From Squalus acanthias (taxonomy: Eukaryota), in assembly GCA_030390025.1 (NCBI GenBank), contig CM059431.1, forward strand, positions 95,978,001-96,042,000: 64,000 nt of DNA, in the 5' to 3' direction. The notes beneath the pieces are model-generated. The model did not search any database. It was not told the DNA's origin and was given only the letters and a program-made list of their open reading frames with translations. Positions 6,112 through 63,363 of this stretch are shown here, one piece after another. Positions within the stretch are counted from its first letter, which is position 1. Each line of letters opens with the position of its first letter. The position numbers were made by a program, and so were the translations under genes.

Positions 6112-6288
6112 CTTGGTAGGGGGAGGGGCACCAGCATATAGGAGTAGAAAAGAGGAATAAGGTGCATAAAAGAGTGTGTTGGTTAGTACTAGAGAAGAAA
6201 GTAGTACTAGAGGCGGAATTAGTACCATATTAGATAGGTGTGAGAAGTCGCACAACACCAGGTTATAGTCCAACAGTTTTATTTGAAA

Positions 6289-6326
6289 TCACAAGCTTTC
6301 GGAGCAGCTGCTCCTTCGTCAGGTGA
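6289..6326 (-). ncRNA. Minimal hammerhead ribozyme motif (inverted pLTR)
   Basis: Reverse complement reads TCAC-CTGACGA-A-GGAGC-agct-GCTCC-GAAA-GCTT-GTGA. Confidence 0.8.
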
Positions 6327-7018
6327 AGTGAAGAAATACAAGTGGGCACAGCATATATAGACAGAGAACAATGCCTGTGCAGAGAACAATGCCAGACGAC
6401 TACAGTTAATCTTTCTGACTGCCCTTTATCACACCTCGGCAAAGAGACAACCACGGCAATCAAATCCAACCAGGTCAGTCAGGAAGACATTACATCAAAG
6501 ACGATAGCAAAATACAACAAAGACAATGAGGTGGGGTCACAGGCGGTCTAATGTGGCAGAGGCTGCAGTCTGTATGGAAAACCAAAAACTTTAAACTTTT
6601 TACTTTTTTTACTGGAAATCACATCTGTGAACAAGCCAACGATGACTCGAGTCTGGATGACACTACGTTAGGTGGGGTTACATGTAGCGTGACATGAACC
6701 CAAGATCCCGGTTGAGGCCGTCCTCATGGGTGCGGAACTTGGCTATCAGTTTCTGCTCGATGATTTTGCGTTGTCGTGTGTCTCAAAGGCCGCCTTGGAG
6801 AACGCTTACCCAAAGATCCGAGGATGAATGTCCTTGACTGCTGAAGTGTTCCCCGACTGGGAGGTAACACTCCTGCCTGGCGATTGTTGCGCGGTGTCCG
6901 TTCATACGTTGTCGCAGTGTCTGTATGGTCTAGCCGATGTACCATGCTCCGGGGCATCCTTTCCTGCAACGTATGAGGTAGACAACGTTGGCCGAGTCAC
7001 ATGAGTATGTACCATGTA

Positions 7019-9440
7019 ACCAAGATAGAGTCCATGCTCTCAGCCTGTGCTCAGAACATAGCAGACCAGCTACGAGACACCGCCAAACAGACGAGGCAAC
7101 GGAACTACGCTGCCTACATGCACATCAAGAACAGGAAGCTTGAGAAACTTGGCATCACCACCAGCAGCAACCAAGCCTCCCCCGGTACCACGGTCGCAAC
7201 CACAGGGAAGTCCATCGTCAACATGTCCGACCACACCCTTCAATCAGACAAAATCGAAGTTCTCAGCCAAGGGCTCAAGTTCTGCCCCACCACCAAAATG
7301 GACCCCATCGGTCTCGCGGCAGACACAGAGGAATTCATCAGGAGATTGAGGCTCCGGGAATTCTTCCACAAATCCCAAGATGTCAGCAACGAACCCAATG
7401 AGACAATCAATGATCTGGAACAGCAGACAGAGGGACCCGCAGTGCAGCAACCGAAGAAGGAAGAGTCAAATTGGACCCCACCGGAGGGTTGCTGCCCTAA
7501 GCTTGACATGTATGCACAGGCTGTCAGGAGATGCATCAACGCCAGATTCATCAGCCGCACTCACAAGACAGTCCAGAATGTCACCCGAGCACAATGCAAC
7601 GCCATCCACACTCTCAAGACCAACCGCAACATCGTCATCAAACCAGCGGACAAAGGAGGAGCCATCGTCATACAGAACAGAATGGACTATTGCAAAGAAG
7701 CATACCAACAACTGGACAACCAGGAACACTACAGACAGTTACCCGCAGATCCGACCAAAGAACACACCCACCAACTCAATAGACTGATCAAGACCTTCGA
7801 TCCAGACCTTCAAAGCATCCTACGCGCTCTCATCCCACGTACTCCCCGCGTGGGAGACTTCTACTGCCTCCCAAAGATACACAAAGCCAACACACCCGGA
7901 CGTCCTATCGTATCAGGCAACGGAACCCTGTGAGAGAACCTCTCTGGATACGTCGAGGGCATCCTGAAACCCATCGTACAGGGAACCCCCAGCTTCTGTC
8001 GCGACACTACAGACTTCTTACAGAAACTCAGCACCCATGGACCAGTTGAACCAGGAACACTCCTCGCCACGATGGACGTATCGGCACTCTACACCAGTAT
8101 CCCCCACGATGACGGCATCGCTGCGACAGCCTCAGTACTCAACACCAACAACAGCCAATCTCCAGACGCCATCCTACAACTCATCCGCTTCATCCTTGAC
8201 CACAATGTCTTCACCTTCGACAACCAGTTTTTTACCCAAACACACGGAACAGCCATGGGGACCAAATTCGCACCCCAATACGCCAACATCTTCATGCACA
8301 AGTTCGAGCAAGACTTCTTCGCTGCACAGGACCTCCAACCAACGCTGTACACCAGATACATCGACGACATTTTCTTCCTTTGGACCCACGGCGAAGGATC
8401 ACTGAAAAGACTACACGATAACATCAACAAGTTCCATCCCACCATCAAACTCACCATGGACTACTCCTCAGATTCGGTTTCATTCTTGGACACACGAACC
8501 TCCATCAAAGACGGACACCTCAGCACTTCACTCTACCGCAAGCCCACGGACAACCTCACGATGCTCCACTTCTCCAGCTTCCACCCTAACCACGTTAAAG
8601 AAGCCAACCCCTATGGACAAGCCCTGCGAATACACAGGATCTGCTCAGACGAGGAGGAACGCGATGGACACCTACGGACGCTGAAAGATGCCCTCGTAAG
8701 AACGGGATACGACGCTCGACTCGTCGATCGACAGTTCCGACGGGCCACAGCGAAAAATCGCATAGACCTCCTCAGAAGACGAACATGGGACACAACCAAC
8801 AGAGTACCCTAGATCATCCAGTACTTCCCCGGAGCGGAGAAACTACGCCATGTTCTTCGCAGCCTTCAACATGTCATCGATGACGACGAACACCTTGCTA
8901 AGGCCATCCCCACGCCTCCACTACTCGCCTTCAAACAGCCGCCTAACCTCAAAAGTACCATCGTTCGACAGCAAATTACCCAGCTTTCAGGAGAACAGCG
9001 ACCACGACACCACACAACCCTACCACAGCAACCTCTGCAAGACATGCCAGATCATCAACACAGATACCATCACCACACGTGAGGACACTACCCACCAGGT
9101 ACATGGTACATACTCATGTGACTCGGCCAACGTTGTCTACCTCATACGTTGCAGGAAAGGATGCCCCGGAGCATGGTACATCGGCGAGACCATGCAGACA
9201 CTGCGACAACGTATGAACGGACACCGCGCAACAATCGCCAGGCAGGAGTGTTACCTCCCAGTCGGGGAACACTTCAGCAGTCAAGGACATTCAGCCTCGG
9301 ATCTTCGGGTAAGCGTTCTCCAAGGCGGCCTTCGAGACACACGACAACGCAAAATCATCGAGCAGAAACTGATAGCCAAGTTCCGCACCCATGAGGACGG
9401 CCTCAACCGAGATCTTGGGTTCATGTCACGCTACATGTAA
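7019..9440 (+). pseudogene. Penelope RT + GIY-YIG endonuclease ORF (5'-truncated; stops at 7931 and 8810; frameshift near 8967)
   Basis: KPADKGG, LPKIHK..PGRPIVS, DVSALYTSI, GTAMG, RYIDD, then VYLIRC...WYIGET. Confidence 0.93.
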
Positions 9441-9791
9441 CCCCACCTAACGTAGAGTCATCCAGACTCGAGTCATCGTTGGCTTGTTCACAGATGTGAT
9501 TTCCAGTAAAAAAAGTAAAAAGTTTAAAGTTTTTGGTTTTCCATACAGACTGCAGCTGCTGCCACATTAGACCCCCTGTGACCCCACCTCATTGTCTTTG
9601 TTGTATTTTGCTATCGTCTTTGATGTAATGTCTTCCTGACTGACCTGGTTGGATTTGATTGCCGTGATTGTTTCTCTGTCGAGGTGTGATAAAGGGCAGT
9701 CAGAAAGATTAACTGTAGTCGTCTGGCATTGTTCTCTGCACAGGCATTGTTCTCTGTCTATATATGCTGTGCCCACTTGTATTTCTTCACT

Positions 9792-9829
9792 TCACCTGAC
9801 GAAGGAGCAGCTGCTCCGAAAGCTTGTGA
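9792..9829 (+). ncRNA. Minimal hammerhead ribozyme motif (3' pLTR)
   Basis: TCAC-CTGACGA-A-GGAGC-agct-GCTCC-GAAA-GCTT-GTGA: CUGANGA/GAAA core, stems I and II, palindromic AAGCTT in place of stem III. Confidence 0.8.
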
Positions 9830-10260
9830 TTTCAAATAAAACTGTTGAACTATAACCTGGTGTTGTGCGACTTCTCACTTTTGTCCACCCCAGTCCAACA
9901 CCGGCATCTCCACATCATATTAGATAGGAGCAGACTAAGGAAGACTACGAAAAGTTCAAAAATGGGTTTAGAATGCATGTACGTAAACGCACAAAGTGTG
10001 GTGAATAAGGTTGGTGAGCTACAATCACAATTAGCCGTGTGGCAATATGATGTTGTGGCAATAACGGAAACGTGGCTTAAAAACGGTGAGGACTGGGCAC
10101 TTAATATTCAAGGGTACAAGGTGTTCAGAAAAGATAGGGAAGGAAAAAAGGGTGGTGGGGTGGCAGTGCTGATTAAGGAAGACATTGTAGTGTTGAAAAG
10201 GGAGGATGTTCTTGAGGGGACAAGGACAGAATCCATTTGGTCAGAGTTGAGGAGCAAAAA

Positions 10261-10982
10261 GCGTCGACAGCGGGGGAGGAGGAGCCTTTCTTTCTTTCTC
10301 TCTCCCACAGAGCGGTCGGCAGCGGGGAAGGAGGAGCGGACCTGGTTGGAGCGACAGAGGCCTGAGGTGAGTCAATAAAGGGAGGCCCGAGGCTCAGGTA
10401 GGCCTCAGACCAGCGTCGACAGCGGGGGAGGAGGAGCCTTTCTTTCTTTCTCTCTCCCACAGAGCGGTCGGCAGCGGGGAAGGAGGAGCGGACCTGGTTG
10501 GAGCGACAGAGGCCTGAGGTGAGTCAATAAAGGGAGGCCCGAGGCTCAGGTAGGCCTCAGACCAGCGTCGACAGCGGGGGAGGAGGAGCCTTTCTTTCTT
10601 TCTCTCTCCCACAGAGCGGTCGGCAGCGGGGAAGGAGGAGCGGACCTGGTTGGAGCGACAGAGGCCTGAGGTGAGTCAATAAAGGGAGGCCCGAGGCTCA
10701 GGTAGGCCTCAGACCAGCGTCGACAGCGGGGGAGGAGGAGCCTTTCTTTCTTTCTCTCTCCCACAGAGCGGTCGGCAGCGGGGAAGGAGGAGCGGACCTG
10801 GTTGGAGCGACAGAGGCCTGAGGTGAGTCAATAAAGGGAGGCCCGAGGCTCAGGTAGGCCTCAGACCAGCGTCGACAGCGGGGGAGGAGGAGCCTTTCTT
10901 TCTTTCTCTCTCCCACAGAGCGGTCGGCAGCGGGGAAGGAGGAGCGGACCTGGTTGGAGCGACAGAGGCCTGAGGTGAGTCA
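10261..10982 (+). repeat. 152-bp tandem repeat, ~4.7 copies (CR1 5' UTR)
   Basis: Units start with GCGTCGACAG at 10261, 10413, 10565, 10717 and 10869; identical short ORFs recur every 152 bp. Confidence 0.97.
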
Positions 10983-11314
10983 TTAAACTCACCTACGTGG
11001 CCTTTTTCCCCAGCGGGGAAAGAGCTTCGCGGGCTTTTTCAAAGGCAGAGGGCGGGGCCAATTCATTGGTACCCGTATATAGGTGGAGCGGTTGCTAAAC
11101 CCGAGACACTACACTAGTAGTGACTCCCACCCTCCCACCTCCTCTAACCTTTAGGGGTAGAGTGAATTTAAAAGGTAGGTTCGATTTTATATTTTGTTTT
11201 CAGGGACTTAACTCCTGGATCTAAGATAAATAAGTTTAAATTTTAGTAATAAAGTAACATAAGGGTTAAGTCATAACAGGAAGTCTCGGACCCGTTTCAT
11301 GCTCCTCCTGTGCC

Positions 11315-12217
11315 ATGTGGGAAACCAGGGACACTTCCAGTGTCCCTGACAACTACGTGTGCGGGAAGTGTGTCCAGCTGCAGCTCCTGACAGCCCGCAT
11401 GGCGGTGCTGGAGCTGCGGGTGGACTCACTCTGGAGCATGCACGATGCCGAGAACTCGGTGAATCGCTCATTTAGTGAGTTGTCCACACCGCAGGTAAAG
11501 GCTAGGACAGACAGTGAATGGGTGACCAAGAAGCAGGGCAATATCAGGAAGGTAGTGCAGGAGTCCCCTGTGGTCATCTCCCTCCAAAACAGGTATGCCG
11601 CTTTGGATACTGTTGGGGGAGATGGCCTACCAGGGGAAGGCACTAGCAGCCAAGTTCATGGCACCATGGCTGGCTCTGCTGCACAGCAGGGCGGGAAAAA
11701 GAGTGGTAGGGCTATAGTGATAGGGGACTCAATTGTAAGGGGAATAGACAGGAGTTTCTGTGGCCGCAACCGAGATTCCAGGATGGTATGTTGCCTCCCT
11801 GGTGCAAGGGTCAAGGATGTCTCGGAGCGGCTGCAGAACATTCTGAAGAGGGAGGGTGAACAGCCAGCTGTCGTGGTGCATGTAGGTACCAACGATATAG
11901 GTAAAAAGCGGGAAGAGGTCCTACAAGCAGAATTTAGGGAGCTAGGAGCTAAATTAAAAAGTAGGACCTCTAAGGTAGTAATCTCTGGATTGCTACCAGG
12001 GCCACGTGCTAATCAGAATAGAGAGAACAGGATAGTGAGATTGAATACGTGGCTTGAGCAGTGGTGCAGGAGGGAGGGATTCAAATTCCTGAGGCATTGG
12101 AACCAGTTCTGGGGGAAGTGGGACCTGTACAAAAGGGACGGTCTGCACTTGGGCAGGAATGGAACCGATGTCCTCGGGGTAATATTTGCTAAAGCAGTTC
12201 GGGAGGATTTAAACTAA
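11315..12217 (+). CDS. CR1 ORF1p (zinc finger + SGNH esterase); the ancestral start was probably a mutated ATG near 11273
   Basis: Open 300-aa frame with VCGKC, IGDSIVRG, CLPGARVKD, HVGTND and RDGLHL. Confidence 0.85.
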   Translation: MWETRDTSSVPDNYVCGKCVQLQLLTARMAVLELRVDSLWSMHDAENSVNRSFSELSTPQVKARTDSEWVTKKQGNIRKVVQESPVVISLQNRYAALDTVGGDGLPGEGTSSQVHGTMAGSAAQQGGKKSGRAIVIGDSIVRGIDRSFCGRNRDSRMVCCLPGARVKDVSERLQNILKREGEQPAVVVHVGTNDIGKKREEVLQAEFRELGAKLKSRTSKVVISGLLPGPRANQNRENRIVRLNTWLEQWCRREGFKFLRHWNQFWGKWDLYKRDGLHLGRNGTDVLGVIFAKAVREDLN

Positions 12218-12264
12218 TATGGCAGGGGAATGGGAACCTATGTAGCGAAACAGGGGGAAGTAAT

Positions 12265-15200
12265 ATGCAGTCAGAAACAAATGTTAGAAGGGTGAGAAAC
12301 AATAGGGGAAGGCCGAGTAAACAAAGGCAAGAAACACAAAGGGCCATACTAAATCATCAGTCTAAAAGGACAAAGGATGTTAATAAAACAAGCCTAAAGG
12401 CTCTGTGTCTTAATGCAAGGAGTATCCGTAATAAGGTGGATGAATTGACTGTGCAAATAGATGTTAACGGATACGATGTGATTGGGATTACAGAGACGTG
12501 GCTCCAGAACAATCAAGGCTGGGAACTGAACATCCAGGGTATTCAACATTCAGAAAGGATAGAATAAAAGGAAAAGGGGGTGGGGTAGCATTGCTGGTTA
12601 AAGAGGAGATTAATGCAATAGCTAGGAAGGACATCAGCTTGGAGGATGTGGAATCAATATGGGTTGAGCTGCAGAACACCAAAGGGCAGAAAACGTTAGT
12701 GGGAGTTGTGTACAGACCTCCAAACAGCAGTAGTGAGGTGGGGGAGGGTATGAAACAGGAAATCAGAGGTGCGTGCAAAAAAGGCACGGCAGTTATCATG
12801 GGTGACTTTAATATGCATATAGATTGGGCTACTCAAACTGGAAGCAATACGGTGGAGGAGAATTTCCTGGAGTGTTTAAGGGATGGTTTCCTAAACCAAT
12901 ATGTTGAGGAACCAACTCGAGGGGAGGCCATCCTGGACTGGGTGTTGTGTAATGAGGAAGGACTAATCAGCAATCTTGTGGTACGAGGCCCCCTGGGGAA
13001 GAGTGACCATAGTATGGTGGAGTTCTACATTAGGATGGAGAAGGAAACAGTTAAGTCAGAGACCATGGTCCAGAACTTAAATAAGGGCAACTTTGAGGGT
13101 ATGAGGCGTGAATTGGCGAGGTTAAATTGGCAAGCGATATTTAAGGGGCTATCAGTGGAAGGGCAATGGCAGACATTTAGAGATCGCATGGATGAACTAC
13201 AACAATTGTACATCCCGGTCTGGCGTAAAAATAAAAAAGGGAAGGTGGCTCAACCATGGCTAACAAGGGAAATCAGGGATAGTATTAAAACCAAGGAAGT
13301 TGCATACAAATTGGCCAGAAGTAGCAGCAAACCCGGGGACTGGGAGAACTTCAAAACTCAGCAGAGGAGGACGAAGGGTTTGATTAGGGCAGGGAAAATA
13401 AAATATGAAAGGAAGCTTGCGGAGAACATTAAAATGGACTGCAAAAGCTTCTATAAATATGTAAAAAGAAAGAGGTTAGTAAAAACAAACGTAGGTCCCC
13501 TGCAGTCGGAAACAGGGGAAGTCGTAATGGGGAACAAGGAAATGGCAGATCAATTGAACAAGTACTTTGGTTCGGTGTTTACTGTGGAGGACACACACAA
13601 CCTGCCGGAAATAAAAGGGGTCAGAGGATCTGGTAAGAGGGAGGAGCTGAGGGAAATCCTTATTAGTCGGGAAAAGGTATTGGGGAAATTGATGGGACTG
13701 AAGGCTGAAAAATCCCCGGGGCCTGATGGTCTGCATCCCAGAGTACTTAAGGAGGTGGCCTTGGAAATAGTGGATGCATTGACGATCATTTTCCAACATT
13801 CCTTAGACTCTGGATCAGTTCCGATGGAGTGGAGGGTGGCCAATGTAACCCCTCTTTTTAAAAAAGGAGGGACGGAGAAAGCAGGGAATTATAGACCGGT
13901 CAGCCTGACATCGGTCGTGGGTAAAATGATGGAAGCAATTATTAAAGATGTCATAACAGACCATTTGGAAAGTGGCGACATGATAGGTCCAAGTCAGCAT
14001 GGATTTGTGAAAGGGAAATCATGCTTGACAAATCTTCTGGAATTTTTTGAGGATGTTTCCAATAGGGTGGACAGGGGGGAACCAGTAGATGTGGTGTATT
14101 TGGACTTTCAGAAGGCCTTCGACAAGGTCCCACACAAGAGATTGGTGAGCAAAGTTAAAGCACATGGGATTGGGGGTAATGTGTTGACGTGGATTGAGAA
14201 CTGGTTGGCACACAGGAAACAAAGAGTAGGAGTAAATGGGTACTTTTCAGAATGGCAGGCAGTGACCAGCGGGGTACCGCAGGGTTCGGTGCTGGGACCC
14301 CAGCTGTTTACATTATATATTAATGATTTGGACGAAGGGATTAAATGTAATATCTCCAAATTTGCGGATGACACTAAATTGGGAGGCAGTGTGAACAATG
14401 AGGAGGATGCTAGGAGGCTACAGAGTGACTTGGACAGGTTGGGTGAATGGGCAAATGTATGGCAGATGAAGTACAATGTGGATAAATGTGAGGTTATCCA
14501 CTTTGGTGGTAAAAATAGAGAGGCGGAATATTACCTGAATGGTGGCAAATTAGGGAAAGGGGAGGTGCAACGAGACCTGGGCATCATGGTACATCAGTCA
14601 CTGAAGGTGGGAATGCAAGTGCAGCAGGCAGTCAAGAAAGCAAACGGAATGATGGCCTTCATAGTAAGGGGATTTGAGTACAGGAGTAGGGAGGTGATGC
14701 TGCAGTTGTACAGGGCCTTGGTGAGGCCACACCTGGAGTATTGTGCGCAGTTTTGGTCTCCTAACTTAAGGAAGGACATTCTTGCTATTGAGAGAGTGCA
14801 GCGAAGGTTCACTAGATTGATTCCTGCGATGGCTGGACTGACATATCAAGAAAGATTGGGTCAACTGAACTTGTATCCTCTGGAGTTCAGAAGAATGAGG
14901 GGGGATCTTATAGAGACATTTAAAATCCTGACTGGTTTAGACAAATTAGATGCGGGCAGAATGTTCCCAATGGTAGGGAAAACGAGATTGAGAGGTCGCA
15001 CAACACCAGGTTATAGTCCAACAGTTTTATTTGAAATCACAAGCTTTCGGAGCTATCGATTGCTCCTTCCTCAGGTGAAGGAAAACTAGAACCAGGGGTC
15101 ACAGTCTAAGGATTAAGGGGAAGCCATTTAGGACTGAGCTGAGGAGGAATTTCTTCACCCAGAGAGTGGTGAATCTATGGAATTCTCTTCCACAGAAGGT

Positions 15201-15303
15201 TGTTGAGGCCAGTTCGCTAAATATATTCAAAAGGGAGTTAGATATAACACTCACAACTAAGGGGATCAAGGGGTATGGCGAGAAAGCAGGAATGGGGTAC
15301 TGA
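12265..15303 (+). pseudogene. CR1 ORF2 (APE endonuclease + RT); frameshift near 12535 and insertion at ~14988-15079
   Basis: LCLNARS..ITETW in ORF 12265, then [39 protein letters not shown] and FADD in ORF 12498..15089. Confidence 0.93.
14988..15079 (-). mobile_element. ~92-bp Penelope pLTR-derived insert carrying a hammerhead motif (15037-15078)
   Basis: Near-identical to 6241-6328. TSD GGAAAAC at 14977-14983 and 15080-15086. Reverse complement reads TCAC-CTGAGGA-A-GGAGC-aatcgata-GCTCC-GAAA-GCTT-GTGA. Confidence 0.88.
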
Positions 15304-18300
15304 GGTAGCATGTTCAGCCATGAACGCATTGAATGGCGGTGCAGGCTCGAAGGACCGAATGGTCTACTCCTGTACCTATTTTCTATGTTTCTATGTTTCT
15401 ATTGGGGGTATTCTACAGGCCTCCAAATAGTGAGAGGGAGGTAGAGGAGCAAATCTGCAGGGAAACCGCAGAGATATGCAAGAGCTATAGAGTGGTGATA
15501 TTGGGGGACTTTCTAATTACCCAAATATCAATTGGGATAATGCTAGGGTAAATGGAAAGGAGGGGGAGGAATTTCTGAAATATGTTCAGGAGAATTTCTT
15601 GACCAGTATGTTCTTGGCCCAACTAGGAAGGAGGCATTGCTGGATCTGGTGCTGGGGAATGAGGTGGGCCAGGTCGACCAAGTGTTTGTGGGAGAACACT
15701 TGGGTACGAGTGATCATCGTATCATAAGATTTAGATTAACAATGGAAAGGAGAAAGGAACAATCTAGAGTGGAACTTCTAAACTGGAATAGGGCTAACTT
15801 CAATGGGATGCGAAAGGATCTAGCCAGAGTAAAATGGTACCAAAGACTGACAGGAAAAACTGTAACGGAACAATGGGAGATCTTTAAGGAGATGTTCCAA
15901 GTACAGGCTAGGTACATTCCAACAAGAGGGAAGGGTAAGGGAACCAAAACAAGGGCTCCTTGGATGACGAGGGAGATAGAGAAGAAGATGAGGAAACAAA
16001 AAAAGAGGGTGTATGATGAATGTCAGGTGAATTCTTCAAGGGAGAACCAGACCAAATACAATAAGTTGAGAGGGGAAGTGAAGATGAAAATAAGATTGGC
16101 AAAGAGAGAATGAGAGTAGAATGGCAGTTAACATAAAAGGGAACCCAAAAATCTTCTACCGGCATGTAAACAGTAAGCGGGTAGTAAGAGGCGAGGTGGG
16201 GCCTATTAGGGACAAAGGTGGTGTTATATGCTTAGAGGCGCAGGGCAAGGCTAGAATACTCAAATGAGTACTTTGTATCGGTGTTTACTAAGGAGGTGGA
16301 TGCTGACAAAATATATCAGTAGAAGTGGAAAAGGTAGAAGCAATGGAAGGGGTGAAAATTAATAGACAGGATGTGCGAGAAAGGCTGGGTTTGCTTAGAG
16401 TGGACAATGGCTTGCATCCCAGGTTGCTAAGGGAGTTGGTGGAGGAGATAGCGGAAGGGCTTGCCATAATTTTCCAATCTTCCCTCGATGCGAGGGAGGT
16501 GCCTGAGGATTGGAAAGTGGCAAATGTGACCCCATTCTTCAAGATAGTGTGTAAGGACATTCCTAGTAACTATAGTTTAACATCAGTGGTGGGTAAAGTT
16601 TTAGAAACAATAATCAAGGAAAAAATTAACAGGCACTTGGAGAGGTTTAAGCTAATTAAGGAGAGCCAACACGGATTTGTAAAAGGCAGATCGTGTTTGA
16701 CTAATCTAATTGAATTTTTTGATGAAGTAACAGAGAGGATTGATGAAGGGAATGCAATGGATGTTGTCTACATGGATTTTCAGAAGGCGTTCGACAAAGT
16801 ACCTCATAGCAGGCTGGTTAACAAAATTGAGGCTCATGGACTAGGTGGGTCAGTGGCAGCTTGGATAAGGAATTGGCTTAAGGACAAAAAACAGCGAGTT
16901 GTGGTAAATGGCTGTTTTTCAGACTGGAGGATGGTAGACAGTGGTGTTCCCCAAGGGTCAGTGCTGGGGCCACTGCTTTTTTTGATAATGACCTGGCTAT
17001 TGGAATACAGAGTAGAATTTCTAAATTTTCCAATGACACCAAACTTGGGGGTGTGGCAAACAGTGATGATGATACCAATCGACTGCAACAGGAAGAGGAA
17101 AGGCTAGCAGAATGGGCAGGCAAGTGGCAGATGGAACTTAATACAGAGAAGTGTGAGGTGATGCATTTTGGCAGAAGGAACATGGAGAGGCAATATACAT
17201 TTAATGGCACAGTTTTAAAGAGTGTGCAGGGACAGAGGGACCTGGGAGTTAATGTGCATAGGTCCCTGAAGGTGGCGGGACATATTGAGAGAGTGGTTGG
17301 CAAAGCATATGGGATCTTGGGCTTCATAAATGGGGGTATTGAGTACAAAAGTAGAGAAGTTATGCTGAACCTTTATAAAGCGCTGGTTAGGCCACAACTG
17401 GAGTATTGCGTCCAGTTCTGGTCACCACACTTTAGGAAGGATGTGAAGGCACTCGAGAGGGTGCAGAGGAGATTTACCAGAATGGTTCCGAGGATGGGGG
17501 ATCTTAGCTACAAGGACAGTTTGGAGAAGCTGGATTTGTTTTCATTAGAGCAAAGGAGGTTGAGGGGTGATTTGATAGAGGTGTACAAGATTATGACGGG
17601 TTTTGATAGGCTAGATGGGGAAAGGCTGTTCCCACTAGTTGATGGTACAAGGACTAGGGCACACAGATTTAAGGTTTTGGGCGATACAGGGGGGATGTGA
17701 GGGAAAACTTTTTTACGCAGCGAGTGGTGAGGACCTGGAACTCGCTGCCGACGGAAGCGGTGACACTCAATGTTTTCAAGGGGAGACTGGATAGGCACTT
17801 GAGGGAAATAAACTTGCACGGCTACGGGGATAGAGCGGGGGAATGTAACTGACGAGATTGCTCTACAGATTGGCGGCATGGGCCGAATGGTCTCCTTCTG
17901 TGCCGTTATGACTCTATAAGCACTGCTGACACAGAACTTTGTTCATGGTGAGCACATGTTCGTATTTCGGGCACCACCATTTCATCCATTCATTTTAGTT
18001 TGAAGATGAAAATTTACCACCTTATACTTTACAAAAATACATCTTATGTTAAGGAAGGTCTTCACAGTCCATAGAATGAAATAAAAGCAATTTCACCCTT
18101 CCTCTCCTGAAGCTGATGAATTACGCTGGGGTAAAGTTCTACAAGCACTGACAGATTTCCAGCACTTCACCCAACTGTTCATTCTTATTGGTTGAGTCTA
18201 GACACCAAGTAACAGCAAGCTGTCCAGGTGTTACCGAGAGGCCATGCATATGAATATATGATCAAATATCCAACGTTTTGCTGTTTGTCTTGATTGTGTT

Positions 18301-18679: not shown

Positions 18680-18900
18680 AAGCGGTCTCCATGGATCCAG
18701 TATGATGGCGGGGATGGGGAACTCTAGTTATGAGGAAAGACCTGAGATACTGGGACTATTTCCACTGGGACAGAGAAGGATAAGAAGAGATTCAATAAAG
18801 GTTTTTGAAATTATCAAGGATTTTGATGGAGTGAATACAGAAAGATGCTTTCTTCTGGTTGAGGAGTCAGTGAAAAGGGGTAGTTAATTTAAAATTGTCA
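18680..18900 (+). mobile_element. Old CR1 ORF2 3' fragment
   Basis: SYEERPEILGLFPLGQRRIRRDSIKVFEI resembles the CR1 ORF2 C-terminus. Confidence 0.7.
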
Positions 18901-18904
18901 CTAA

Positions 18905-18996
18905 AGAACTTGCATTTATATAGCACCTTTCACATCCTCACAATGTCCCAAAGCGCTTCATAGACAATGAAGTACTTTAGACGTGTAGCCACTGTT
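18905..18996 (-). mobile_element. 3' fragment of Deu-type SINE
   Basis: ACTTGCATTTATATAGCACCTTTCAC is close to the reverse complement of the SINE end at ~37715-37740. Confidence 0.7.
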
Positions 18997-37338: not shown

Positions 37339-37751
37339 GGTGTCAGCTGTGGCTTAGTTGGCAGCTCTCTCGCCTGAGTCAGAAGGTAGTGGGTTCAAAT
37401 TCCACTCCAGAGACTTTAGCACAAGGTGTAGGCTGACACTCCAGTGCAGTACTGAGGGAGTGCTGCACTGTCAGAGGTACCGCCTTTTGGACATAAAAGA
37501 TCCCATGACACTCGAAGAAGGGTTGGAGAGTTCATCCTAGTGAATATTTATCCCTCAACCAATACCTAAAACAGATTATCTGGTCATTATCACCTTACTG
37601 TTTGTGGGAGCTTGCTGTGCATAAGTTGGCCGTCACATTTCCTACATTACAACAGTGACTACACTTCAAAAGTACAACATAGGCTGTAAAGTGCTTTGGG
37701 ATGTCTTGACATTGTGAAAGGCGCAATATAAATGCAAGTCTTTCTTTCTTT
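37339..37751 (+). mobile_element. Deu-domain tRNA SINE (SacSINE1/AmnSINE-like)
   Basis: A/B boxes GTGGCTTAGTTGG and GGTTCAAATTCC; central GCAGTACTGAGGGAGTGCTGCACTGTC; 3' GTGAAAGGCGCAATATAAATGCAAGT(CTTT)n. Confidence 0.82.
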
Positions 37752-48789: not shown

Positions 48790-49178
48790 GTCCCCTCTGT
48801 TTCTCTATCTCTCCCTCTGTCCCTGTCTCTCCCTCTATCCCTGTCTCTCGCTCACTCTCCCTGTATGTCTCCCTCTGTCCCGGTCTCTCTCTCCCTCTGT
48901 CCCGGTCTCTCCGTCTCTCTCACCCTCCGTCTGTCCGTCTCTCCCTCTGTCCCTGTCTCTCTCCCTCTGGCCCTGTCTCCCCCCCTCTGTCCCTGTCTCT
49001 CTCCCTCTGGCCCTGTCTCCCCCCCTCTGTCCCTGTCTCTCTCTCTCCCTCTGTCCCTGTCCCTGTCTCTGTCTCTCTCCCTCCCTCCCTCTGTCCCTGT
49101 CTCTCTCTCTCTCTCCCTCCCTCTGTCCCTGTCTCTCTCTCTCTCTCGCTTTCTCTCTCTTTGTTTTGCTGTCTCTCT
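48790..49178 (+). repeat. CT-rich simple repeat (CTCTGTCCCTGT units)
   Basis: Direct inspection. Confidence 0.95.
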
Positions 49179-49539
49179 GCAAAGAACATTGGAGCAAAAG
49201 GAGAAGCAGAGAATCATTGTCAGTTCAGGAGAGAGCTTTCTTCCCTTTTTTTTAAACGTTTGAAATCCAGTCAATGTTGAAAAGAGAGCAAAATTCTATC
49301 ACTCTTAGGGGAAATGCTTCTCGACAACGCTTTCCTATTTGTGTTTGTGATAATGAAGGTGCTTGTATCAGACACCAGCTCCACTAATCTGTTCGCAACT
49401 AATTGAATGCCCTTAATGTCCCAGCTCAGTGTAATCCTGAGCAATAACTGCCTGCAGGTTTTAGAAGAGACGATTAAATGAGGCCCAGTCGGTGGATGTT
49501 AAAGATTTTTTTTACCGCTATTGTAAGAAGCGCAGGGAA

Positions 49540-52501
49540 TCTCTCTCCCCAGTCTCTCTCGCTCTCTCTCTCCCCCAGACTTTCTCTCCCCCAGCCTCTC
49601 TCGCTCTCTCTCTCCCCCAGACTTTCTCTCCCCCAGCCTCTCTCGCTCTCTCTCTCCCCCAGACTTTCTCTCCCCCAGTCTCTCTCGCTCTCTTTCTCCC
49701 CCAGCCTTTCTCAGCCCCAGTCTTCTCGCTCTCTCTCTCTCCCAGACTTTCTCACCCTCCAGTCTCTCTCTCTATGTCTCTCCCCCCCAAGTCTCCCTCC
49801 CCGCCTCTCTACCCCCCAGTCTCTCTCCCCGCCTTTCTCCCCCAGTCTCCCCGCCTCTCTCCCCCCCAGTCTCCCCGCCTCTTTCACCCCCAGTCTCCCC
49901 GCCTCTCTCTCCCCCAGTCTCCCCGCCTCTCTCCCCCCCAAGTCTCCCCGTCCTCTCTCCCCCTCAGTCTCCCCGACCCTCTCCCCCAGTCTCCCCGACC
50001 CTCTCCCCCAGTCTCCCCGACCCTCCCCCCAATCTCACCGACCCTCTTCCCCAGTCTCCCCGACCCTCCCCCCAGTCCCCCCGCCTCACGTCCCCCCCCA
50101 GTCTCCACCGCCTCTTTCACCCCCAGTCTCCCCGCCTCTCTCTCACCCCCATCTCCCCGCCTCTATCCCCCCCAGTCTCCCCTCTCTCCCCCCAGTCCTC
50201 CCGACCCTCTCCCCCAATCTCCCTCCCCGACCCTCCTCCCCCCAGTCTCCCCGACCCTCTCCCCCAATCTCCCCGACCCTCTCCCCATATCTCCCCGACC
50301 CTCTCTCCCCCAATCTCCCGACCCTCTCCCTCTCCCCCAATCTCCCCGACCCTCTCCTCCAACTCCTCGACCCTCTCCCCCAATCTCTCCATCCCTCTCG
50401 CCCTCTCCCCGTCACTCTCGCNNNNNNNNNNCTCTCTCTGTCCTCCCCCGTCTCTCTCTCTCTCTCTCCTCCCCCGTCTCTCTCTCTCTCTCTCCTCCCC
50501 GTCTCTCTCTCTCTCCTCACCCCGTCTCTCTATCTCTCTCTCCTCCCCCCGTCTCTCTCTCTCTCTCCTCCCCCGTCTCTCTCTCTCTCTCTCCTCCCCC
50601 GTCTCTCTCCTCCCACCGTCTCTCTCTCTCTCCTCCGCCCGTCTCTCTCTCTCTCTCTCTCTCCTCCCCGTCTCTCCTCTCTCTCTCCTCCCCGTCTCTC
50701 TCTCTCTCTCTCCTCCACCGTCTCTCTCTCTCTCTCTCCTCCCCCGTCTCTCTCTCTCTCTCCTCCCCCCCCCGTCTCTCTCTCTCTCTCCTCCCCCCGT
50801 CTCTCTCTCTCTCTCCTCCCCGTCTCTCTCTCTCTTCTCCTCCCGTCTCTCTCTCTCTCTCTCTCTCTCCTCCCCATCTCTCTCTCTCTCTCCTCCCCGT
50901 CTATCTCTCTCTCCTCCCCCGTCTCTCTCTCTCTCTCCTCCCCCGTCTCTCTCTCTCTCCTCTCCCCGTCTCTCTCTCCCCCGTCTCTCTCTCTCTCTCT
51001 CCTCCCCCTGTCTCTCTCTCTCTCTCTCTCTCCTCCCCGTCTCTCTCTCTCTCTCTCTCCTCCCCGTCTCTCTCTCTCTCTCTCTCCTCCCCCGGCTCTC
51101 TCTCTCTCTCCTCCCCCCATCTCTCTCATTCTCTCTCTCCTCCCCGTCTCTCTCTCTCTCTCTCTCTCCTCCCGTCTCTCTCTCTCCTCTCCCGTCTCTC
51201 TCTCTCTCTCTCCTCCCCCGTCTCTCTCTCTCTCTCTCTCCTCCCCGTCTCTCTCTCTCTCTCCTCCCCTCCCCGTCTCTCTCTCTCTCTCCTCCCCTCC
51301 CCGTCTCTCTCTCTCTCTCCTCCCCGTCTCTCTCTCTCCTCCCCCCCGTCTCTCTCTCTCTCCTCCCCGTCTCTCTCTCTCTCTCTCCTCCCCCCGTCTG
51401 TCTCACTCTCTCCTCCCCCGTCTCTCTCTCTCTCTCTCCTCTCCCATCTCTCTCTCTCCTCCCCCGTCTCTCTCGCTCTCTCTCTCTCCTCCCCCGTCTC
51501 TCTCTCTCTCCTCTCCCGTCTCTCGCTCTCTCTCTCCTCCCTGTCTCTCGCTCTCTCTCTCCTCCGTCTCTCGCTCTCTCTCCTCCACCGTCTCTCTCTC
51601 TCTCTCTCTCCTCCCCCATCTCTCTCTCTCTCTCCTCCCCGTCTCTCTCTCTCTCTCCTCCCCGTCTCTCTCTCTCTCTCCTCCCCGTCTCTCTCTCTCT
51701 CTCCTCCCCGTCTCTCTCTCTCTCCTCCCCGTCTCTCTCTCTCTCCTCCCCGTCTCTCTCTCTCTCCTCCCCCCATCTCTCTCTCTCTGCTCTCCCCGTC
51801 TCTCTCTCTCTCTCCTCCCCCCATCTCTCTCTCTCTCTCTCTCCTCCCCCGTCTCTCTCTCTCCTCCCCGTCTCTCTCTCTCTCTCCTCCCCGTCTCTCT
51901 CTCTCTCTCCTCCCCGTCTCTCTCTCTCTCTCCTCCCCGTCTCTCTCTCTCTCCTCCCCGTCTCTCTCTCTCTCCTCCCCCCATCTCTCTCTCTCTGCTC
52001 TCCCCGTCTCTCTCTCTCTCTCCTCCCCCCATCTCTCTCTCTCTCTCTCTCCTCCCCCGTCTCTCTCTCTCCTCCCCGTCTCTCTCTCTCTCTCCTCCCC
52101 CGTCTCTCTCTCTCTCTCCTCCCCGTCTTTCTCTCTCTCCTCCCCCGTCTCTCTCTCTCTCTCTCCTCCCCCGTCTCTCTCTCTCTCTCTCCTCCCCCGT
52201 CTCTCTCTCTCCTCCCCCCGTCTCTCTCTCTCTCCTCCCCCCGTCTCTCTCTCTCTCCTCCCCCCGTCTCTCTCTCTCTCCTCCCCCGTCTCTCTCTCTC
52301 TCCCCCGTCTCTCTCTCTGTCTCTCCCCCGTCTCTCTCTCTGTCTCTCCCCCGTCTCTCTCTCTGTCTCTCTCTCCCCGTCTCTCTCTCTCCCTCCCCCG
52401 TCTCTCTGTCCTCCCCCCTCTCTCTCTCCCTCCCCCGTCTCTCTCTCTGCCCCGTCTCTCTCTCTCCCTCCCCCGTGTCTCTCTCTCTCTCTCTCTCTCC
52501 C

Positions 52502-52536
<35 letters not shown>

Positions 52537-52570
52537 CCCATCTCTCTCTCTCCCCCGCTCTCTCGCCCCC
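49540..52570 (+). repeat. ~3-kb polypyrimidine satellite, (CT)n-CTCCCCGT units, with assembly gap N10 at 50422-50431
   Basis: Direct inspection. Confidence 0.97.
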
Positions 52571-55500
52571 CGTCCAGTTCCCTGGACAATTTGTTCGAAG
52601 GTGACAGTCACACCCCTTAGGTTAAATACTTCAGATTGGTCCCTGGCCAGGGACAGGAGGGTGTGACTATGAGTGAGGCAGGTATGGGTATCTAGAAGGT
52701 AGCATTGGAAGAGCCTCAGCCCCTGCACTTGTCCAACGTTACAAGGTTCTTGCAGCCTGTGTGGATGAGAGCAGGGACTGCAGGGAGGATGAGCAAACTG
52801 ACCACAGCACCATGGTACAGGGGGCCATTCAAGTTGGGGGAGTAAAAAGGAATGTAGTAGTGGTAGGGGACATTATGGTTAGGGGGATAGATACTATTCA
52901 CTGCAGCCGAGAACATGAGTCCCGAAGGCTGTGTTGCCTGCCCAGTGCCAGGGTTAAGGACAACTCCTTGGGACTGGAGAGGAACTTGGAGGGGAAGAAT
53001 CCAGTTGTCGTGGTCCATGTAGGTACCGACGACATAGGTAGGACTAAGAAAGTGGTTCTGCTGAGGGAGGATGAGCAGTTAGGGGTTAAATTAAAAAGTA
53101 GAACCACAAAGGTAATAATCAGTTTGAGTGGAGATAAGAAATAATAAGGGAAATAAGTCAATGGTGGGAGTAGTCTATAGGCCCCCTAACAGTAGCCACA
53201 CTGTGGGACAGAGTATAAATCAAGAAATAATGGGGGCCTGTAAGAAAGATACTGCAATAATCATGGGCGATTTTAATCTTCATATAGATTGGAGAAACCA
53301 AATTGGCAAAGGTAGCCTTGAGGACGAGTTGATAATGTTTTCTGGCCAGTTTCTTAGAGCAATACATTGTGGAACCAACCAGTGAACAGGCTATTTTAGA
53401 TTTGGCAATGTGTAATGAGACAGGATTAATTAATGATCCCATAGTAAAGGATCCTCTAGGGAAGAGTGATCATAACATGATAGAATTTCACATTCAGTTT
53501 AAGGGTGAGAAACTTGGGTCTGAAGCTGGTGTCTTAAGCTTAAATAAAGGCAATTACAAAGGTATGAAGACAGAGTTGGCTTCAGTGGACTGGGAAAATA
53601 GATTAAAAGGTAAGACAGTAGATAAGCAGTGGCAGACTTTTAAGGAGATATTTCAAAACTCTCAACAAAGATATATTCCAATGAGAAAGAAAGACTGTAC
53701 GAGAAGGATGAACCATCCGTGGCTTACGAAGGAAGTTAAGGAGGGTATCAAATTGAAAGAAAAGGAATACAATGTTGCGAAGATTAGTGGTAGGCCAGAA
53801 CATTGGGAAATTTTTAGAGACTTGCAAAGGATGACTAAAAAAATAACAGAGGGAGAAAATAGATTATGAGAGTAAACTAGCAAGAAATATAAAAAGACAG
53901 TAAGAGCTTCTACAAGTATATAAAAAGGAAGAGAGTAGCTAAAGTAAATGTTGGTCCCTTAGAGGATGAGACTGGGGAATTAATAATGGGAAACAAGGAA
54001 ATGGTTGAGACTTTGAACAAATATTTTTTATCTGTCTTCATGGTAGAAGACACTAAAAGCATCCCAATAATAGTGGAAAATCAAGGGGCAAAAAGGGAGG
54101 GAGGAACTTAAAACAATCACTATCACTAGAGAAAAGGTACTAGGCAAACTAATGGGACTAAAGGCTGACAAGTCCCCTGGACCTGATGACCTGCATCCTA
54201 GGGTCTTAAAAGAAGTGGCTGCAGAGATAGTGGATGCATTAGTTGTAATCTTCAAAAATTCCCTAGACTCTGGAAAGGTCCCAGCAGATTGGAAAACGGC
54301 AAATGTACATCCATATTCAAGAAATAGAGGGAGACAGAAAGCAAGAAACTATAGGCCAGTTAGCCTAACGTCTGTCATTGGGAAAATGCTGGAATCCATT
54401 ATTAAAGTAGTAGTAGCAGGACATTTAGAAAATCATAATACAATCAAGCAGAGTCAACATGGTTTTATGGAAGGGAAATCGTGTTTGACAAATTTATTAA
54501 AGTTCTTTGAGGCTATAGCGAGCAAGGTGGATAAAGGGGAACCGGTAGATGTAGTGTATTTGGATTTCCAAAAGGCATTCGATAAGGTGCCATATAAAAG
54601 ATTACTGCACAAGATAAGTGTTGTGGGTAATATATTAGCATGGATAGAGGATTGGCTAACTAACAGAAAACAGAGAGTGGGGATAAATGGGTCATTTTCA
54701 GGTCGGCAAACTGTAACTAATGGGGTGCCAGAGGGATCAATGCTGGGGCCTCAACTATTTACAATCTATATTAATGACTTGGATGAAGGGACCGAGTATA
54801 ATGTAGCCAAATTTGCTGATGATACAAAGATAGGTGGGAAAGCAAGTTGTTAGGAGGACACAAAGAGTCTGTAAAGGGATATAGATAGTTTACGTAAGTG
54901 GGCAAAAATTTGGCAGAGAGAGTATAATGTGGGAAAATGTGAGGTTATCCACTTTGGTAGGAAGAATAGAAAAGCAAAATGCAATTTAAATGGAGAGAGA
55001 CTACAGAATGCTGCAGTACAGAGGGATCTGGGTGTTCTCGTACATGAAACACAAAAAGTTAGCATGCAGGTACAGCAAGTAATTAGGAAGGCAAATGGAC
55101 TGTTGGCCTTTATTGCAAGGGGGATGGAGTACAAAAGTAGGGAAGTCTTGCTACAACTGTTAGTGAGACCACACCTCGACTACTGCATACAGTTTTGGTC
55201 TCCTTATTTAAGGAGGGATATACTTGCACTGGAGGCAGTTCAGAGAAGGTTCATTAGGTTGATTCCTGGGATGAAGGGGCTGTCTTATGAGGAAAGGTTG
55301 AGCCTATACTCATTGGCGTTTAGAAGAATGAGAGGCGATCTTATTGAAACATAAGGTTCTGAGGGGGCTCGACAGGGTAGATGCTGAGAGGGTGTTTCCC
55401 CTTGTGGGGGAATCGAGAACTAGGGGGCATAGTTTCAGAATAAGGGGTCGCCCATTTAAGACAGAGATGAGGAGGAATTTCTTCTCTCAGAGGGTTGTGA

Positions 55501-60720: not shown

Positions 60721-61289
60721 GAATGACTAAATTTGCCGACGACACCAAACTTGCGGCTGTGGAAAACAGTGATGATGATACCAATCGACTGCAACAGGAC
60801 ATAGAAAGGCTAGCAGAATGGGCAGACAAGTGGCAGATGGAATTTAATACAGAGAAGTGTGAGGTGATGCATTTTGGCAGAAGGAACAGGGAGAGGCAAT
60901 ATACACATAATGGCAGTTTTAAAGAGTGTGCAGGGACAAGGGGACCTGGGAGTTAATGTGCATAGGTCCCTGAAGGTGGCAGGACATATTGAGAGTGATT
61001 AACAAAGCATATGGGATCTTGGGCTTCATAAATAGAGGTATTGAGTACAAAAGTAGAGAAGTTATGCTGAACCTTTATAAAGTGCTGGTTAGGCCACAAA
61101 AAGACTTGCATTTATATAGCGCCTTTCACAACCACTGAACATCTCAAAGCGCTTTACAGCCAATGAAGTACTTTTGAAGTGGAGTCATGTTGTAATGGTC
61201 ATGATGCAGAAATGCCGGCGTTGGACTGGGGTGGACAAAAATGAGAAGTCGCATAACACCAGGTTATAGTCCAACAGATTTATTTAAAA

Positions 61290-61327
61290 TTACAAGCTTT
61301 CGGAGCTGTCGCCCCTTCCTCAGGTAA
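61290..61327 (-). ncRNA. Minimal hammerhead ribozyme motif
   Basis: Reverse complement reads TTAC-CTGAGGA-A-GGGGC-gaca-GCTCC-GAAA-GCTT-GTAA. Confidence 0.78.
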
Positions 61328-62738
61328 AGTTACAATGAGTGAATCTACAATATTCCACAGTATATAAACACAGAAACTGCAGAGATACAATCTTTCAGGG
61401 AAGGTGTCCTTACATCAAAGACACACCAAGAGCACAGCCAAGACAATGAGATGTGTCACAGGGGGTCCAACGTGTCAAATCCTGCTGTCTGCAGTTTTTT
61501 TCTGTGTTTTTTTTAAAAAACTGGAAAGACAGACAACGATGTCGAGTCACGTTCTGTAGCATGACATGAACCCGATATTCTTATTGAGGCCGTCCTCATG
61601 GGTGCGGAACTTGGCTATCAGTTTCTGCTCGATGATTTTGCATTGTCGTGTGTCTCGAAGGCAGCCTTGGAGAACGCTAACCCACAGATCCGAGGCTGAA
61701 TGTCCTTGACTGCTGAAGTGTTCCCCGACTGGGAGGTGACAATCCTGCCTGGCGATTGTTGCGCAGTGTCCGTTCATACGTTGTCTCAGTGTCTGCATGG
61801 TCTCGCCAATGTACCATGCTCTGGGGCATCCTTTCCTGCAACGTATCAGGTAGACACCGTTGGCCGAGTCACATGAGTATGTACCATGTACCTGGTGGGT
61901 AGTGTCCTCACGTGTGATGACGGTATCTGTGTTCATGATCTGGTATGTCTTGCAGAGGTTGCCGTGGCAGGGTTGTGTGGTGTCGTGGTCGCTGTTCTCC
62001 TGACAGCTGGGTAATTTGCTGCGAACGATGGTACTTTTGAGGTTAGGCGGCTGCTTGAAGGTGAGTAGTGGAGGCGTGGGGATGGCCTTAGCAAGGTGTT
62101 CGTCGTCATCGATGACATGTTGAAGGCTGCGAAGAACATGGCGTAGTTTCTCCGCTCCGGGGAAGTACTGGACGGTGCTCCGGGGAAGTACTGGTGACTC
62201 GGCCAACGTTGTCTACCTGATACGTTGCAGGAAAGGATGCCCCAGAGCATGGTACATCGGCGAGACCATGCAGACACTGAGACAACGTATGAACGGACAC
62301 CGCGTAACAATCGCCAGGCAGGATTGTCACCTCCCAGTCGGGGAACACTTCAGCAGTCAAGGACATTCAGCCTCGGATCTGTGGGTTAGCGTTCTCCAAG
62401 GCGGCCTTCGAGACACACGACAACGCAAAATCATTGAGCAGAAACTGATAGCCAAGTTCCGCACCCATGAGGACGGCCTCAATAGGGATATTGGGTTCAT
62501 GTCACGCTACAGAACGTGACTCGACATCGTTGTCTGTCTTTCCAGTTTTAAAAAAAAAACACAAAAAAAAACTGCAGACAGCAGGGTTTGACATGTTGGA
62601 CCCCCTGTGACACATCTCATTGTCTTGGCTGTGCTCTTGGTGTGTCTTTGATGTAAGGACATCTTCCCTGAAAGATTGTACCTCTGCAGTTTCTGTGTTT
62701 ATATACTGTGAAATATTGTAGATTCACTCATTGTAACT

Positions 62739-62776
62739 TTACCTGAGGAAGGGGTGACAGCTCCGAAAGCTTGTAA
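62739..62776 (+). ncRNA. Minimal hammerhead ribozyme motif
   Basis: TTAC-CTGAGGA-A-GGGGT-gaca-GCTCC-GAAA-GCTT-GTAA. Confidence 0.75.
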
Positions 62777-63363
62777 TTTTAAATAAATCTGTTGGACTGT
62801 AACCTGGTGTTCTGCGACTTCTCATGTTGTAATGGAGTATTGCGTCCAGTTCTGGTCACCACACTTTAAGAAGGATTTGAAGGCCCTTGAGAGGGTGCAG
62901 AGCACTTTTACCAGAATGGTTCCGGGGATGGGGGATCTTAGCTACAAGGACAGGTTGGAGAAGCTGGATTTGTTTTAATTAGAGCAAAAGAGTTTGAGGG
63001 GCAATTTGATAGAGGTGTACAAGATTATGACGGGTTTGGATAGGCTAGACGGGGAAAGGCTGTTCCCACTAGTTGATGGTACAAGGACCAGGGGACACAG
63101 ATTTAAGGTTTTGGGCAAGAGATACAGGGGGGATGTGAGGAAAAACTTTTTTACGCAATGCGTGGTGATGACCTGGAACTCGCTGCCGACGGAAGTAGTG
63201 GAAGTGGAGACACAATGTTTTCAAGGGGAGACTGAATAGGCACTTGAAGGAAATAAACTTGGAGGGCTACGGGGATAGAGCGGGGAAATGGGACTGACTG
63301 TATTGCTCTACAGAGAGCCGGCACGGACTCGATGGGCCGAATGGCCTCTTTCTGTGACGGTAT

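Follow-up and report, generated by a model that had tools for sequence, protein, structure and literature searches.

The described system closest to the locus reported here is the Poseidon-type Penelope-like element (PLE) of Anolis carolinensis (PAc; PMC11167929). As in the shark repeats analysed below, PAc carries a hammerhead in its end repeat, and two internal reverse-transcription start sites bound an optional tail, the tail being the stretch between them. Ribozyme mutants of the anole element still insert, so that cleavage of the hammerhead is not needed, and a template shortened at its 5' end yields a shorter product in vitro; both features, including a product length determined by the template's 5' end, agree with what is proposed here. 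The anole enzyme moreover requires RNA well downstream of its reverse-transcription start sites. The two systems differ in that the PAc ORF starts at stem II, whereas here an ATG appears behind the tail. The main text of the PAc report describes neither start-bounded genomic copies nor a mapped transcription start.

Minimal hammerheads of metazoan PLEs, as characterized in the accessible sections of PMC4209133, have a short stem I, an unpaired base before stem II, a G10.1-C11.1 pair, a palindromic residue of helix III and highly variable loops, all of which recur in our sequence. The same sections state that dispersed minimal hammerheads are mostly single motifs, ascribed to truncated PLEs; the ends and duplications of these motifs lie outside the analysis given there, whereas both ends of the insert described here were mapped to candidate functional sites. 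The Pen2a repeat of the rotifer Adineta vaga provides a further parallel. According to the available part of PMC3846280, it contains a TATA box (TATATATA) followed after 20 bp by a TCACT initiator, and Pen2a shows an optional 31-bp tail, an inverted arm, 8-10-bp duplications and solo repeats. The solo repeats have no duplications and were ascribed to recombination or deletion, whereas the shark insert has a duplication and begins at a predicted initiator. Animal non-LTR retrozymes also resemble the insert in being non-coding, derived from PLE repeats and equipped with a type I hammerhead, but they form tandem arrays with one ribozyme per unit and a circular RNA running from cut to cut, whereas the insert is a single copy with an internal cut site (PMC7761336, in the sections at hand; bioRxiv 10.64898/2026.07.22.740005).

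The window analysed here (the whole stretch of Squalus acanthias DNA, 64 kb in length) contains a CR1-type LINE with a 7-bp direct repeat, GGAAAAC, within its ORF2. Between the two repeat copies lie 96 nt, antisense to the host CR1, that consist of 91 nt homologous to a Penelope end repeat and five extra nucleotides at the 3' end (Table 1); the homologous part amounts to 92 nt if the C common to the duplication is counted. By a rough estimate, a 7-bp repeat would be met by chance, with 5 nt of slack on each side, with a probability of about 0.01. Alignment with empty sites clears most of the remaining doubt. Three other CR1 copies of the window lack the insert at this position, and the CR1 frame is open for 71 residues up to a stop once the insert and one repeat copy are deleted in silico. 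Because of the empty paralogues and the restored frame, we conclude that the insertion and its target-site duplication are real. A previous interpretation of this locus, made from the letters of the window and hereafter called the sequence-only reading, had described an insert of about 92 bp flanked by its own GGAAAAC duplication, and this is borne out by both repeat copies and the three empty sites. The same reading placed the start 1 nt before stem I and the end about 50 nt further on, in agreement with the 1 nt and the 52 nt (from predicted cut to CTCA end) found here.

Table 1. Features of the insert, of its host LINE and of Penelope-like elements in the 64-kb window
Feature	Position	Strand	Basis and remarks
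Inverted, tail-less arm of nearby PLE	6240..7018	-	Whole unit 6240-9918 flanked by 10-13-bp duplication
Main arm of nearby PLE, tail-bearing; parent reference	7019..9918	+	RT; endonuclease region matches GIY-YIG-bearing copy at 61.5-62.2 kb
TATA box TATATATG	9759..9766	+	Motif; perfect TATAWAWR, absent from insert
Initiator, strict consensus	9787..9793	+	Prediction; predicted +1 is A9789, 30 nt after TATA start
Tail of parent repeat, absent from insert	9878..9918	+	Alignment; carries 3' strand (9894-9901) of conserved helix
Host CR1-type LINE	10260..15402	+	152-bp 5' tandem, esterase ORF1, APE-RT ORF2, 8-bp 3' repeat
Target-site duplication, left copy (GGAAAAC)	14977..14983	+	Sequence, empty-site alignment
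Whole insert, 96 nt, antisense to CR1	14984..15079	-	Alignment
Five extra nt at reverse-transcription start end	14984..14988	-	Origin inferred: untemplated, or false start in tail
Penelope end-repeat sequence	14989..15079	-	Alignment; from parent position 9791 to tail-less CTCA end (9877)
5' strand of conserved 8-bp helix	15015..15022	-	Alignment; partner in missing tail
AATAAA hexamer	15026..15031	-	Alignment; in 5/5 window copies, not in relative L001
Minimal type I hammerhead, predicted	15037..15078	-	Read from sequence against description in PMC4209133
Stem II loop, 8 nt, palindromic centre	15054..15061	-	Alignment; 4 nt longer than in other four window copies
Target-site duplication, right copy	15080..15086	+	Sequence; first base also matches parent repeat (1-nt microhomology)
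Second PLE insertion, other subfamily	61199..62824	.	Tail-bearing arm on minus strand; tail-less inverted arm 62194-62824; 11-14-bp duplication

Besides the insert, the window contains four copies of its sequence, each located in an end repeat of one of two PLE insertions. A profile search across the window recovered these five copies, with no additional one at E below 1. ORFs linked to these end repeats match Pfam RVT_1 and GIY-YIG, and the closest named homologues of the window Penelope protein come from sharks (80-88% identity). The insert is 91-92% identical to the repeats at 6241 and 9790, which belong to an element about 5 kb away. Its alignment with the copy at 6241-6327 comprises 84 matches, 3 mismatches and one 4-nt gap, and 8-9 mismatches separate it from the second subfamily. 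Its loop and three substitutions set the insert apart from both window subfamilies. The promoter described below is read from the nearest relatives of the insert rather than from its own parent subfamily. The insert was made by an endonuclease-positive PLE, as repeat homology, CTCA 3' end and 7-bp duplication all match such an origin.

For comparison, a metagenome scan supplied 12 PLE loci. One of them, L001, is 58% identical in protein to the shark element; the other 11 represent one closely related far clade. At the 3' end, CTCA is the stopping point, to within 1 nt, of three of the five window copies; the other two have a tail of 40-41 nt. The CTCA end of the insert is also the end of the two inverted arms in the window, and the tail is missing in 6/12 repeats of the far clade. 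On these counts, absence of the tail was rejected as a special feature of the insert. The sequence-only reading was correct that a tail is missing but gave its length as 37 nt, while the parent tail measures 40-41 nt (9878/9879-9918). The 3' end of the insert matches one of the two reverse-transcription start sites published for a PLE. The five extra nucleotides are identical to a 5-mer found in the tail at 9906-9910; reverse transcription may have begun wrongly within the tail and then jumped, or the identity may be due to chance. In both PLE insertions of the window, the main arm has the tail and the inverted arm lacks it, as would be expected if each target strand had been primed at a different one of the two reverse-transcription start sites.

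The 5' end of the insert corresponds to parent position 9790-9791 and not to the ribozyme cut. A boundary set by ribozyme cleavage was rejected, the cut being internal. In the parent repeat, 20 nt separate a TATA box from an initiator, and the predicted +1 lies 1-2 nt before the first base of the insert. TATA-initiator pairs of such spacing occur four times on both strands of the 64-kb window, and two of these occurrences are the parent repeat. In the second subfamily, an imperfect TATATA and a TCA are found at the same spacing. L001 has TATATAAA and CTTCACT at a distance of 31 nt from each other, placed 8 nt ahead of the hammerhead core, with unrelated sequence in between; 260 of 100,000 shuffles placed a TATA box at the L001 position. 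All 12 far-clade repeats contain T(C/T)AGTAT 24-26 nt before the core, which we take to be initiator-like. Occurrence of a TATA/initiator motif in PLE repeats is itself already known from the rotifer element. The layout is not universal among PLEs, since the Penelope promoter of D. virilis is TATA-less and its start lies far upstream of the ribozyme, at 46 bp from an intron whose end coincides with helix I and which follows the start (PMC2377424, PMC4209133, as far as their accessible sections go). A literature search, with most subscription journals outside it, returned no paper on PLE micro-insertions bounded by a transcription start or on a link between this motif and insertion ends. That the 5' end of the insert may mark a PLE transcription start is supported by conserved promoter motifs together with a small, confounded set of junctions (see below). 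In the sequence-only reading, the boundary at the ribozyme edge was taken to favour a defined unit; a predicted start site at the TATA/initiator just before the ribozyme explains it better.

In LTR retroelements, minus-strand strong-stop DNA is formed when reverse transcription, primed by tRNA at an internal site close to the RNA 5' end, soon runs off. We consider it probable that the insert is a comparable product, i.e. a run-off, strong-stop-like cDNA of the 5' end of uncleaved PLE mRNA. Pol II would start at the TATA/initiator of the end repeat, giving an mRNA that begins 3 nt before hammerhead stem I. The RT-endonuclease of the element would bind the tail/ORF-start region near the mRNA 5' end, nick the target and start reverse transcription internally, at the tail-less site, after five extra nucleotides. 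The enzyme would then copy about 90 nt through the uncleaved ribozyme and run off the RNA 5' end, and joining of the cDNA end with loss of about 1 nt and with 1-nt microhomology would leave the 7-bp duplication. The ribozyme would be part of the insert owing to its place at the very start of the transcript. Observed in favour of this route are the duplication, the homology, the common 3' end, the promoter motif at the 5' end and the intact cut site. The comparison with strong-stop DNA is an analogy, as PLEs are not LTR elements: here nicked target DNA would serve as primer and the product would be fixed in the genome.

It is conceivable, and proposed tentatively, that PLEs routinely start reverse transcription at the junction of 5' repeat and ORF of capped, uncleaved mRNA and integrate run-off cDNAs of 90 and 130 nt. 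If so, many of the minimal hammerheads that lie dispersed by the thousands in animal genomes would be strong-stop products. Such copies would map PLE transcription starts from DNA alone and would indicate that templates in vivo usually carry an uncut ribozyme; they would also help to explain the need for read-through into a tandem copy in full-length mobilisation. For the PLE transposition cycle and the role of the hammerhead in it, start-bounded copies, if real, would constitute a large, countable record of RNA starts and cutting.

Alternatively, the insert might have arisen by ordinary extreme 5' truncation, in which reverse transcription from the tail-less site of the 3' repeat ended after about 91 nt, either by fall-off of the enzyme or by microhomology capture. 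Coincidence of the end with the ribozyme edge would then be due to chance, or the enzyme had just left the last helix; a 5' end fixed by chance would make the insert a truncated copy of the ordinary kind. Most copies of PLEs are 5'-truncated (PMC8557442, in its accessible portion), and only one of five arms in the window ends at the predicted start, the other four ending at unrelated distances of about 630, 780, 970 and 2900 nt. We nevertheless regard truncation as rather unlikely, since no more than 2 nt separate the end of the insert from a predicted start site, one that L001 conserves and that has been published for the rotifer element.

Public contigs bear on both explanations. The parent repeat (9070-9969) was compared with four of 21 listed public runs at 88% likeness; three DNA runs yielded 16,876, 26,485 and 46 matching contigs. 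In one RNA run, 0 reads matched this region, a result that has no bearing on expression. Among the 21 distinct joints listed, which comprise 15 of the 18 in one table and six more from a second, each represented by one contig, 4/42 ends lie at 9789-9790 (binomial P 2e-5 to 9e-5). Position 9789 is the most frequent place among listed joint ends (three of 42, plus one at 9790), which argues against truncation. Two of the four ends are direct junctions with element sequence (P 0.01-0.02 alone). One of these two, at 9789, has a single extra G; an untemplated G is described in the available part of PMC4859970 as a mark of capped full-length LINE-1/SVA copies. An extra G is also present at one joint beginning at 9826, immediately behind the ribozyme cut, a place at which a cap would not be expected, and this counts against the cap reading. 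The insert itself shows no untemplated G at its 5' junction.

In the three DNA runs, depth (which in such a contig comparison is not a copy number) steps up at 9790 from 0.50 to 1.19, from 0.36 to 1.31 and from 0.12 to 1.26 of the endonuclease region. It rises further inside the unit, reaching 3.3-6.0 times the endonuclease level at 9850-9879, and such a steady climb toward the 3' end is what plain 5' truncation or clipped loop variants would give. Similarity of the second subfamily also begins at 9789, so that the depth step is confounded, and possibly two of the four joints as well. No pile-up of molecule starts or ends was seen among the rows listed, again as truncation would have it, and 0/18 loose-end rows listed (777 further rows) fall at 9789-9791 or 9877-9878. 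One opposite-strand joint, represented by one contig, connects 9789 with 9881 and has a depth about fourfold that of a single copy; its short side is 39 letters, equal to the tail length, and it may represent a recurrent unit of inverted tail plus short arm.

The ribozyme part of the insert was read from sequence and alignment. On the minus strand, stem I (15078-15075 with 15040-15037) is followed by the core (15074-15068), an unpaired A, stem II (15066-15049), GAAA and GC. Conserved core, stems I and II and the palindromic remnant of helix III are all present, and the sequence fits a predicted minimal hammerhead of the PLE kind. Cleavage is predicted between 15041 and 15040, i.e. 39 nt inside the insert, and the motif is intact across the cut. 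Rfam gave no match at gathering score anywhere in the 64-kb window, and the sequence is called a hammerhead from its motif and its family context. Folded alone, the insert has z-scores of -0.12 (sense strand) and -1.46 (ribozyme part); stability of the fold is therefore no evidence. The sequence-only reading had noted that the insert has a stem II loop of its own. This holds insofar as the loop exceeds that of the four other window copies by 4 nt, but loop II varies among public contigs too (a substitution and gaps of 1 nt at 9811-9812, and variants clipped at 9814), which makes an own loop unremarkable. Stem II with its loop forms a perfect 14-nt palindrome in one subfamily (9804-9817, 6301-6314) and a near-perfect 18-nt palindrome in the insert (15049-15066); such palindromes could favour intermolecular pairing.

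The own loop is also relevant to a further explanation, namely that the insert belongs to a non-autonomous, SINE-like mini-family whose master copy has this loop, is transcribed and is mobilised in trans by Penelope RT. Both ends of the insert look defined, the loop and three substitutions are unlike those of both window subfamilies, and non-autonomous PLE derivatives are known (PMC8557442, accessible portion; bioRxiv 10.64898/2026.07.22.740005); the fourfold depth of the joint ending at 9789 points in the same direction. On the other hand, no second copy with the loop of the insert is found in the window, and in the public contigs no 4-nt loop insertion reached 3%, although contigs with such an insertion may be clipped. 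The first ribozyme bin has only 1.2-1.3 times the depth of the coding region, and there is thus no sign of a large stand-alone family. A simple consensus scan detected no A or B box for Pol III on either strand of the insert, and no TATA is found upstream of it at its present site; assignment as a SINE by an internal Pol III promoter was rejected on the scan result.

Requirements of the enzyme speak against such a family as well. In tail-bearing repeats, the segment behind the ribozyme pairs with the tail in an 8-bp helix (9844-9851 with 9894-9901). The helix is 98% paired with two compensatory pairs in seven tail-bearing sequences, a set that leaves out two near-duplicates and all tail-less copies; the two compensatory pairs distinguish one clade from the other and amount to roughly one event. 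Present in the window and in L001, L003, L004, L009 and L010, the helix is kept from the shark to a 25%-identical clade, and the tail-less reverse-transcription start lies in its loop. It is a candidate recognition element for the PLE enzyme. The insert lacks the tail strand of the helix, whereas the anole enzyme needs RNA well past the start of reverse transcription. Having neither promoter nor tail helix, the insert is not expected to move again and is probably unable to do so, and we judge the mini-family improbable. What stands of the sequence-only reading is a duplication-flanked product of Penelope machinery with defined-looking ends; its stand-alone mobile ribozyme cassette, retrozyme or SINE finds no support. 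The distinction guards against annotation of such copies as new ribozyme SINEs or retrozymes.

A second pairing, of 9857-9861 with 9901-9905, could cross the first as a pseudoknot in the shark copies and L001; this helix was rejected, as it is only 71% paired over all sequences and is not retained by the far clade. Far-clade repeats have an ATG directly behind the tail. For the shark family, 120 contigs give a consensus after the tail whose most common letters complete an ATG (agreement 0.37).

Among the listed joints, the one that begins with 9826, the base immediately behind the ribozyme cut, is represented by one contig, and another joint duplicates 9789-9838 in tandem. Both would suit an insert that is a retrozyme monomer or a hammerhead cleavage product, that is, a linear or circular RNA defined by cutting, reverse-transcribed and inserted. 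An intact hammerhead core is likewise compatible with this, and non-LTR retrozymes related to PLE repeats have been reported from one chondrichthyan (bioRxiv 10.64898/2026.07.22.740005). Neither end of the insert, however, is near the cut. Tandem multimers, for which the sequence-only reading had proposed to look, are absent, 14977-15086 being occupied by a single copy, whereas animal retrozyme units are about 150-300 bp long and tandem (PMC7761336, sections at hand). A non-LTR retrozyme was rejected for this single copy with its internal cut, which is neither a tandem nor a cut-defined unit. Moreover, single minimal PLE hammerheads did not cleave in vitro according to the accessible sections of PMC4209133, and the anole ribozyme mutants are insertion-competent. 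The retrozyme or cleavage-product origin of this copy is thereby largely refuted, and we consider it very improbable.

Insertion shifts the CR1 frame near the end of ORF2. It was rejected as the sole lesion of the host LINE, as a separate frameshift is present near 12.5 kb. The host CR1 is near full-length and is nested in an older CR1; its 5' region is a tandem array of 4.8 units of 152 bp that are 99% identical. Sequence words of the region 13200-16400 are present in runs of seven organisms, over half of them in six, which suggests a young or shared CR1 family. The window further contains 10 N bases, a CT-rich simple sequence of about 3.8 kb (48800-52600) and a repeat of about 100 nt that occurs three times (61100-61197, 37645-37743 and 18899-18996), one copy lying in CR1 and bordering the second Penelope insertion. 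Pieces of the PLE endonuclease region also turn up in a number of gene isoforms predicted for sharks, among them septin, cytochrome P450 and XRCC5 (P0005, P0011, P0014, P0016, P0019, P0027), and are either exonised copies or annotation artefacts. In other databases, DNA patterns derived from the repeat gave 0 matches in viral, metagenome and prokaryote contigs, and alignment of the protein to viral contigs produced three candidate stretches, 0 of them confirmed.
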